DNA from: Octopus vulgaris
Lineage: Eukaryota
NCBI GenBank assembly: GCA_951406725.2
Contig: OX597823.1
Span: forward strand, 87,296,001 to 87,360,000
Direction of reading: 5' to 3'
DNA: 64,000 nucleotides
Position numbers and translations under genes: made by a program. The first letter of the stretch is position 1. Each line of letters starts with the position of its first letter. A model generated the notes under the pieces. The model had not been told where the DNA came from, searched no databases, and saw only the letters and a list, made by a program, of their open reading frames with translations. Shown piece by piece: positions 16,701 through 19,700 of the stretch.

Positions 16701-19700
16701 AGCGCATGTGAAAAAAATTAATTTACGAATGTCTGTGAGTGCAAGTATATTTACATACATCACACAATACATATCATATGTGTGTGTGTAGGCAAATATA
16801 TATACATACATACATACACATATAGATGAGTGTGTGCGTGTGGGTGTGTGCGTGCGTGTGTATGTATGTGTGCGTGCGTGCGTGTGTATGTATGTGTGCG
16901 TGCGTGTGTATGTATGTGGCGAGCTGGCAGAATCGTTAGCACGCCGGGCGAAGTGCTTACCGGTAATTCGTCTGCCGTTACGTTCTGAGTTCAAATTCCG
17001 CCGAGGTCGACTTTGCCTTTCATCCTTTCGGGGTCGATAATTTAAGTACCAGTTACGTACTGGGGTCGATATAATCGATAATCGATTTAATCCGTTTGTC
17101 TGTTCTTGTTTCTCCCCTCTGTGTTTAGCCCCTTGTGGGTAGTAAAGAAATAGGTGTGTATGTATGTGTGCGTGCGTGTGTATGTATGTGTGCGTATGTG
17201 TGTGTATGCATATATAAAATGATATTTATCAACGGTAAAATGTACACAAAAGACGAAAAGAAAAGTGAAAAATCGATTTCTTTGAATATAAGACATTCTT
17301 CTTACCTTAAATAATAATTTATCACATATAAGTCCCCACGTAAACCTTCCCATTGCGTTGCCAATTGCGCAAACGGAACCAAGAATGGTAAGGAAATAAT
17401 CATCTGAGATGAATGTCAGTCCATAGATCTGAAGAAAAATACGAACATTATCATAGAAATAACCTACTCTGTAACACAAGTGGACATACCAGTAATATGT
17501 ACGTACCAGCTGCCAGGTATGTGCTTAATATGTAAAGTTAGTATATCCAATTGTGTTAATTACATTTTGAAGGTTATTAAAGTAATGTGTTCGGGGATGG
17601 TTAATGGATTGTGCTGAAGAAGGCGCAAGGTGTCCTGAAATATCATATCATATACACACGTTACTTATTCTTCTATATTCGATCGCATTGTTTACACAAA
17701 CGTATTCGTATACGAAACATCGCAACTTTCAGTGGTGGCTCTAATTTATATAGAAAATCTCTGGAGATAACTTTTAGAAATGCAATTGTTTTATATTTAG
17801 AATTACTTTTTGTTTTACCTCTGCCAAAAATATGACGATAATAAAATAAATATCATTCATTGGACAGATGTTCCTAATCGTCTGAAATCTAGTGGTACTT
17901 TACTTTATCGAGCCCAATTGGGTGAGAAAGGAAGACGACCCAATGGAATTTGAACTGAGAATGTAATGAATCAGAAGAAATTTCGCTATGCAATTTGCCC
18001 GACATGCAAATGATTCTGCTCTCTATATAGTTTCTTGAAGAGACTCGGGGGTGTGAAATTTTGGGTGAGTGGGCAAGTTGATCACGCCAACCCTCAGTGC
18101 TCAACGGCTACTTATTCTAACTTGGGATGGCTGCTACAGGGACATTGAGCATGCTTCGACAAGCTTACGGCAGCGGGGCAATCGGTCGAACATAATGTTA
18201 CGAGTGGCGCAGGCGCTTCGATAGCGGAAGACAGTCCCTGGAAGACAACGAGTAATATGGAAGATATGTCACGAGATTCACTCACGAAAATGTGGTATTG
18301 TGTATGGAGGATTCGGCCCCTAGGGACAGACCGACAATCTAGAGTTCTACTGCGAGATTGTGAAGCGTCTGAGGGAGTACATTCGCCGAAAGCGACGGGA
18401 TCTGTGGATTATATTCACTACATAGGATTAAGTCTTGATTTTTATATAATTTTCATCTGTCTTGCCTGCCTATGTTCTGGTGTTCGCTGAATTTTCTCTG
18501 GGGAACATTCTTTCTTTGTAGTTAGAACGTATGTGATCTTCCTCTAGCGTATGGTTATCCACCTAGTGGTTTAGCCCTAAATACACACACACACACACAC
18601 ACACTCACACACACACACTCACACACACACTCACACACACACACACACACACACACACACACACACACACACACATATATGTATATATATATATATATAT
18701 ATATATATATATATATATATATATATATATATATATATATATATATTACGGAGATGTACTTGCATAGCAAGTGATTTGATCTGAGATCGTGTGCTGGAAC
18801 GAAAACAATTGCAGCGTGGAAGGTGTTTGTAAGCCATTTAAAAAACATACAAAAGCCGTTCGATTCACTTCAACATTTGAGTTTAATTTGTCAAAATATT
18901 TTCGCCGCTATAAGACCGCGACCTGTTCACTGACAAAAATCCGTGCTGTTATATATATACTACAAAGTATAGCCTCATCTTTGCCACGATAATGATTTTA
19001 ATCTATTCTTAACACAAAGATAAAGCAATTGAAACAGTAGAAATAAAACTGTCTTCGTACCTTATAGACACCGGTTATTGTTGCATACTGGATGCTTACA
19101 ATAAAGGTTATGAGCCATAGCAAGTAAAACTGCTTCGTCTTTAACATTTGAAAAGGTGTATAGCAATCTTCATCAAGTTCTCTGCAATATATATATAAGT
19201 ATAAATATATATATACCGACAAAAATATACATTATTTACATTATTTACATTTGACGGACATTTGTCCTCATCTTGTTTGTTGTTAACACAACGTTTCGGC
19301 TGATATACCCTCCATCATTCATCAGGTGTCTTGGGGAAATTTCGAACCTGGGTTCTCATTCCTAAGGTATTTTTCGAATATATATATATATATATATATA
19401 TATATATATATATATATACACATACATATATATATACATATATATATACATCTATATATACATACATATATATATGTATATATGTATATTTATATATATA
19501 CACATACGTGCATACATACATATATATGTATATATACACACACGTACATACACACACACAACCACATATATATATTTATATATTTATATGTTTTTATATA
19601 TATATATATATATTATTTATATGTTTATATATATATATATATATATATATATATTTATTTATTTATATATGTATATGTGTATGTATCTATATATTTATAT

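Follow-up and report, generated by a model that had tools for sequence, protein, structure and literature searches.

The window analysed here, 64,000 nucleotides of the Octopus vulgaris genome (contig OX597823.1, positions 87,296,001 to 87,360,000), carries within an intron of a transporter-like gene a short hammerhead ribozyme motif whose core has G at position 3 and C at position 8, the inverse of the canonical C3-G8 pair. The questions raised by this locus are whether the inverted pair is the property of a repeat lineage, what kind of element this lineage is, and whether such a ribozyme could cut the transcripts of the gene in which it lies. The answer that we consider probable is that the G3-C8 hammerhead is fixed in its family and lies at the pseudo-LTR/ORF junction of a Penelope-like element (PLE) that has spread recently, and that the intronic copy is a likely neutral insertion of 202 nt, reverse-transcribed from element RNA whose 5′ end was uncut and likely capped.

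The motif is read on the minus strand from 18937 to 18887, the string reported in the sequence-only reading being the reverse complement of 18887–18937, and it was parsed as a minimal type I hammerhead. Along this strand, stem I of 7 bp (18937–18931 with 18893–18887) is followed by G3-U4-G5-A6-A7-C8-A9 (G3 at 18930, C8 at 18925), an extra G between A9 and stem II (18923), stem II of 5 bp (18922–18918 with 18908–18904), GAAA (G12 at 18903), the palindrome AAUAUU serving as stem III (18900–18895) and U17 (18894), the cut being predicted between 18894 and 18893. Stem II of this copy is one base off the family majority, with U-A changed to U·G and the pairing retained. As in the minimal type I hammerheads of PLEs, stems I and II surround UGA-N-N-A and GAAA, the G10.1-C11.1 pair is present, the 3-8 pair is Watson–Crick (here G3-C8), and a palindromic stem III (AAUAUU in young copies, AAUU in old ones) is combined with an NUH triplet containing U16.1-U17. 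The published consensus CUGANGAH is not matched literally, owing to G3, C8 and the extra G, so the motif is classed as a variant. In folding calculations, a 56-nt segment gave z = −2.84 (2 of 200 shuffles were equally good) and a 101-nt segment z = −0.22. In the lowest-energy fold of the monomer, G3 is paired with U17 (−1.3 kcal/mol) and stem III is absent, and the palindrome duplex contributes only −0.2 kcal/mol.

The inverted pair is a property of the whole family. Of 1,181 candidates in a search with 18749–18990, 56 gave scored matches, which in the best cases reached 94–98% over about 200 nt, and a core pattern in which positions 3, 7 and 8 were left free matched exactly 6,424 times (control, 0). 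The sequence-only reading had inferred that the inverted core is fixed in a repeat lineage, and this is supported: G3/C8 was found in 93 of the first 100 listed of these matches, in 97 of the first 100 listed of the 822 matches to a loop-variant pattern, the list of which overlaps with the former one, and in 28 of 35 copies of an older subfamily (6 of 8 strict-pattern matches). Beyond this genome, the evidence for G3-C8 comes from four sequencing runs under four organism labels, in which no alternative letter reached 10% or more at 18930 or 18925 (filter, 90% likeness); a metagenome scan for G3-C8 returned one match, a false one in a bacterial contig.

Several minor variants were seen among the copies. 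G3-G8 mismatch copies recur among the young ones (L113, L189, L190, L201, L205 and rows of the pattern matches), about as frequently as a C-to-T transition, and possibly represent a small sub-lineage that spreads without the pair, so an intact 3-8 pair may not be required for spread. Three of the 35 old copies (L038, L052, L053) combine C3 with C8, by chance or as a trace of an intermediate state. Additionally, head-to-tail arrays of the G3-C8 unit occur at L097 (contig C2, 29–30 units of 166 nt), L189, L190 and L019–L021 (contig C28), and are places where dimers could form in cis; one non-element junction is common to arrays at four loci on two contigs, which suggests a multimer sub-lineage, and L034 is a separate array of four units of about 232 nt. 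A 5.2-kb repeat on contig C28, considered as a PLE tandem, was rejected as a segmental duplication with a host-type ORF.

The second G3-C8 motif of the window belongs to a copy at 23950–24053 on the plus strand (G3 at 23962, C8 at 23967), in intron 5 of the host gene and antisense to it. This copy is of the same family, but older and decayed. It aligns to the young element at 71% over 99 nt. Copies related to it, at about 80% likeness, can be aligned with the young element over most of its 200 nt, and their ORF start is the same. Between the majority letters of the old and young copies, the core is identical (11/11) and the stems nearly so (22/24, the two changes together turning one stem I pair from G-C into U-A), as against 3/9 for loop II and 37/49 for the linker, and the element in place of stem III is palindromic in both, with 4 nt in the old and 6 nt in the young copies. 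This pattern points to selection for the shape of the hammerhead while the lineage was active, the difference between core and linker being no stronger than suggestive at so few sites. Judged by these alignments, the two motifs are the old and young subfamilies of one element, and the swap was inherited once. The motif at 18887–18937 was described earlier as a second, independent hammerhead; it is a separate insertion, but its swap is not independent, and the argument that two differing motifs bear independent witness against chance decay is not supported, since both belong to one element.

The element itself was recognised from its ORF-bearing copies. The 202-nt piece is present in 30 of 30 fetched ORF loci (the best of 132 protein matches), about 1–1.3 kb after the ORF stop, with G3/C8 in 29 of them and A3/U8 in one broken copy, and the linkage to a GIY-YIG/RT ORF suspected beforehand is thereby borne out. 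Other copies extend from the piece into the ORF, whose start and first 31 codons lie inside it. The piece thus stands both after the ORF stop and at the ORF start, so the 202 nt are the pseudo-LTR/ORF junction of a PLE carrying the endonuclease domain (EN+). In the window, the solo insertion occupies 18749–18950 (minus strand) and comprises the 5′ leader, hammerhead, linker and first ORF codons; it sits in a (TA)n tract, and its 5′ end is a few bases shorter than usual. The 31 codons span 18745–18837 (minus strand), the last bases running into the TA target, and at locus L173 the same N-terminus continues into the ORF. The Pfam matches of the element ORF were to GIY-YIG (E = 1.4e-4, just under the cut-off of that database) and, weakly, to RVT_1, and the Atlas neighbours of its protein carry RVT_1, HTH_animal and GIY-YIG. 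Locus L166 has about 1,000 open codons with both domains, as expected of an EN+ PLE, albeit by weak Pfam matches, and its start was lost at an inversion; no complete unbroken ORF was seen among the element loci inspected. The linker CX2-5CxxC typical of Neptune and Nematis is present as C-x3-C-x2-C before GIY-YIG in L130 and L166. The structure is also that of EN+ PLEs (PMC8557442), with a pseudo-LTR found at the ORF start and again at the 3′ end, inverted 5′ copies, a tail at one end and (TA)n targets: an inverted partner was found in 20 of 30 copies (some pairs counted twice), and 18 of the 30 have a long 3′ end and 12 a short one. A non-LTR retrozyme, that is, a non-coding tandem unit outside an ORF-bearing element, does not describe this copy, which is solo and holds 31 ORF codons.

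The ends of the copies indicate how the short ones may arise. Among 30 position-ordered copies, 29 begin within 20 nt of the stem I anchor; copies mostly begin at one AGATG site 60 nt before the predicted cut. A G precedes AGATG in 66 of the first 100 of 1,203 start-site matches, while extended copies have C or T there (by eye); about 27 of these 66 could be templated by an inverted partner, which leaves 39 of 73, and the loose-end consensus lines of two further runs, probably of DNA, likewise carry G before AGATG. An untemplated G is a mark of the cap in other retroelements, and the G found here is likely a reverse-transcribed cap. A spliced origin of this G is possible as well, since the start site is similar to a 3′ splice site and an intron is present at the 5′ end of Penelope (PMC2377424); the shared upstream letters expected of a spliced exon 1 were not seen in the start-site matches. 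At the same time, the predicted cut is not a preferred start. About 38 copies (of 61 rows) begin there, against about 58 at a control site 4 nt away, the latter value being scaled from 26 of the first 100 of 225 and both counts, made by eye, being blurred by A- and T-runs. These starts amount to less than 1% of the copies, without any excess, so the templates were mostly uncut. Two fixed 3′ ends lie about +148 and +206 from the shared start. This pattern agrees with that of a lizard PLE, in which reverse transcription begins at two internal sites of the ORF with uncut RNA as the main template (PMC11167929). The element RNA would start at the A of AGATG, with the cut about 60 nt and the ATG 117 nt downstream of this A; reverse transcription would begin inside the ORF at one of the two sites and run to the cap, giving solo copies, and ORF-bearing copies would derive from tandem read-through RNA.

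Comparison with known systems places the family among animal PLEs and at the same time sets it apart by its core. The minimal type I hammerheads of metazoan PLEs (Cervera and de la Peña 2014; PMC4209133) likewise lie in the pseudo-LTR and have an unpaired base between 9 and 10.1, G10.1-C11.1, a palindromic stem III, commonly U17, and thousands of solo copies and inverted pairs. However, their pair is C3-G8, the natural swap among them is U3-A8, and no G3-C8 was present in the rows examined of their Fig. S3; the octopus stem I is longer, with 7 bp, and the extra base is G instead of the H of the published consensus, in which one listed representative (Nasonia) also has G. The U3-A8 hammerheads (PMC3088659, PMC4209133) are a comparable case of natural 3-8 covariation, but differ from the canonical pair by two transitions, whereas G3-C8 requires two transversions. 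In the literature searched, which did not cover the work of Lünse et al. on PLE hammerhead variants, G3-C8 was found as an engineered mutant and in no natural hammerhead. The PAc (Poseidon) element of the green anole (PMC11167929) is similar in that its hammerhead adjoins the ORF start, its two internal start sites of reverse transcription give the “tail”, its targets are AT-rich and its template is uncut RNA. There, G3-C8 is an engineered rescue, whereas it is the wild type here; the ATG lies inside stem II there and 57 nt after the cut here, and the octopus protein differs by its CxxxCxxC linker. The EN+ clades Neptune and Nematis (PMC8557442) share the C-terminal GIY-YIG with the CX2-5CxxC linker, (TA)n targets, tandem and inverted copies and the one-end tail, a likeness by features and not by RT phylogeny; the “cuganga” descriptor of that study would miss the G3-C8 core. 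Metazoan non-LTR retrozymes (PMC7229834) resemble the present unit in being short and AT-rich, in their type I hammerhead and in an occasional tandem arrangement (here in L097 and L034). The present unit, in contrast, has a minimal motif, forms the end of a PLE with an ORF and is found mostly as solo or inverted copies.

C3-G8, U3-A8 and G3-C8 cores coexist in this genome. A second abundant PLE has a 781-aa RT/GIY-YIG ORF with many intact copies, an upstream frame of 359 aa and a U3-A8 motif (L095 at G000:C16:20835000-20841500, L072, L074, L075, L078, L083, L089); found by a GIY-YIG search, it proved to be a different, unlinked element, which lies near a copy in L096 only incidentally. In the window, a repeat family with a minimal hammerhead of canonical C3-G8 core and an extra A is represented at 16575–16620 (plus strand), 24823–24869 (minus strand) and about 19280–19330 (minus strand), with very high run depth; two of these copies, in introns 4 and 6, have the sense orientation of the host gene, and one has a damaged stem II.

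That the G3-C8 match arose by chance, or by decay of a canonical core, has practically no probability left: an Rfam search of the window with E up to 1 indeed gave no hammerhead family among 150 listed of 197 matches, mostly microsatellite noise, but the strict G3-C8 descriptor matched twice in the 64 kb and never in 200 whole windows shuffled in blocks of two bases, and the copy counts, with C3-G8 in none of the 100 listed copies in either list, rule out both origins. As for cleavage, we rather expect that the family hammerhead is active as a dimer or with protein, and it likely cuts weakly and in pairs only. The palindrome in place of stem III supports the dimer-type stem III claimed earlier. 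The double change C3G/G8C partly restores cleavage in hammerheads generally (PMC8495972) and in the lizard PLE hammerhead, where cleavage needs protein (PMC11167929), and cleavage by PLE hammerheads is slow in dimers too (PMC4209133). According to PMC3884650, which refers to data not shown, G17 suits G3-C8 better than C17 does, so U17 should be a milder trap; G3-C8 would preserve the Watson–Crick 3-8 pair, while U17 would limit the rival G3-N17 pairing to a wobble. Cleavage of this kind would be slow, confined to the dimer and probably aided by the element protein. We consider it unlikely, though by no means negligible, that the motif is instead catalytically dead or nearly so throughout the family and is kept as a structure or as a promoter or leader element at the RNA 5′ end. 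The absence of any excess of copies beginning at the cut, the two deviations of the motif from the PLE consensus and the G3·U17 ground state are in line with this. So are the location of the motif, +17 to +67 relative to the inferred start, in a region that in Penelope contains an internal promoter (PMC2377424), and the insertion in vitro by hammerhead mutants (PMC11167929). However, the catalytic core, the Watson–Crick 3-8 pair, both stems and the palindrome were retained in two subfamilies despite the change in loop II, and a PLE hammerhead engineered to carry the swap shows partial activity (PMC11167929).

The host gene, MFS-like, was mapped to 14322–43059 on the minus strand by AG/GT exon ends and with the aid of a tandem MFS-like paralogue of matching exon structure (about 50900 to beyond 64000, minus strand); its coding exons 1–7, 5′ of the motif, begin at 43059, 36959, ~33775, 27622, 24223, ~22005 and 19181. 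Exon 7 spans 19062–19181, the donor GT of intron 7 follows from 19061, and the motif begins 124 nt into the intron on the sense strand, so its string and its site about 125 nt into intron 7 were given correctly. Its placement in the pre-mRNA of a transporter holds for strand and intron, while the MFS label has weak Pfam support (MFS_1, E = 0.069, in a single exon) and otherwise comes from a likeness of motifs that we take to be that of this family. Exon 7 was found inside longer contigs of two presumed-RNA runs, which may derive from alleles without the insertion, and the single DNA contig spanning the flank ends at 18950 and is silent on its presence or absence. The insertion is 98% like other copies and thus young, and the matching intron of the paralogue has no copy. 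The surroundings also include a 498-aa open frame within the paralogue at 62064–63560 (plus strand; RVT_1, E = 2.8e-31), likely a fragment of a LINE, and a tRNA-like match at 21179–21249 (minus strand; 42.6 bits, above the gathering score) in repeated sequence, likely a SINE head.

It is very unlikely that sense intronic copies, that at 18887–18937 included, are cut in trans via expressed element RNA or other copies and so lower or alter host transcripts. The sense orientation 124 nt from the donor, the intact motif, the thousands of family copies as potential partners and the family sequence found in two presumed-RNA runs would allow it. Nevertheless, the only other G3-C8 copy in the host gene is antisense and has a different palindrome; with no same-family partner on the same strand, host cleavage would need a partner in trans. 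The weakness of the palindrome, the slowness of PLE hammerheads even as dimers (PMC4209133), the young age of the insertion and the paralogue without a copy count against it as well. Equally doubtful is the broader form of this idea, in which a naturally fixed, active G3-C8/U17/extra-G hammerhead makes the scattered copies substrates for trans dimers, so that, with element RNA and protein expressed, sense intronic copies are cut and host pre-mRNAs lost or rerouted. With slow cleavage by dimers only, a lone intronic copy would rarely cut before splicing. Domesticated intronic hammerheads of the amniote type are low-copy, conserved at one locus and active as monomers; the present motif has thousands of copies, is young, is missing from the paralogue intron and has no monomer stem III. 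Of the dimer-dependent cleavage of host transcripts suggested by the sequence-only reading, the dimer-type stem III therefore stands, but the cleavage of host RNA is unsupported for a solo young copy whose only companion is antisense, whose paralogue intron is empty and whose element RNA is mostly copied uncut. Under the preferred reading, that of a PLE end, the insertion is likely without effect on the host gene.

The host locus itself thus looks ordinary, 18887–18937 being one of more than 6,000 short element-end copies, and the interest lies in the family. The copy ends give genome-scale support to the in vitro model of internal initiation of reverse transcription on uncut RNA, and the likely cap-derived G points to the element start site. 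Searches based on CUGANGA can miss entire PLE families. The 3-8 swap, a classic laboratory rescue mutant, is the wild type here in a family of more than 6,000 copies and in two age layers, which makes this family a natural test of the tolerance of the hammerhead core, with G3-C8 combined with U17 and an extra G, and the three versions of the core in one genome allow their comparison side by side.
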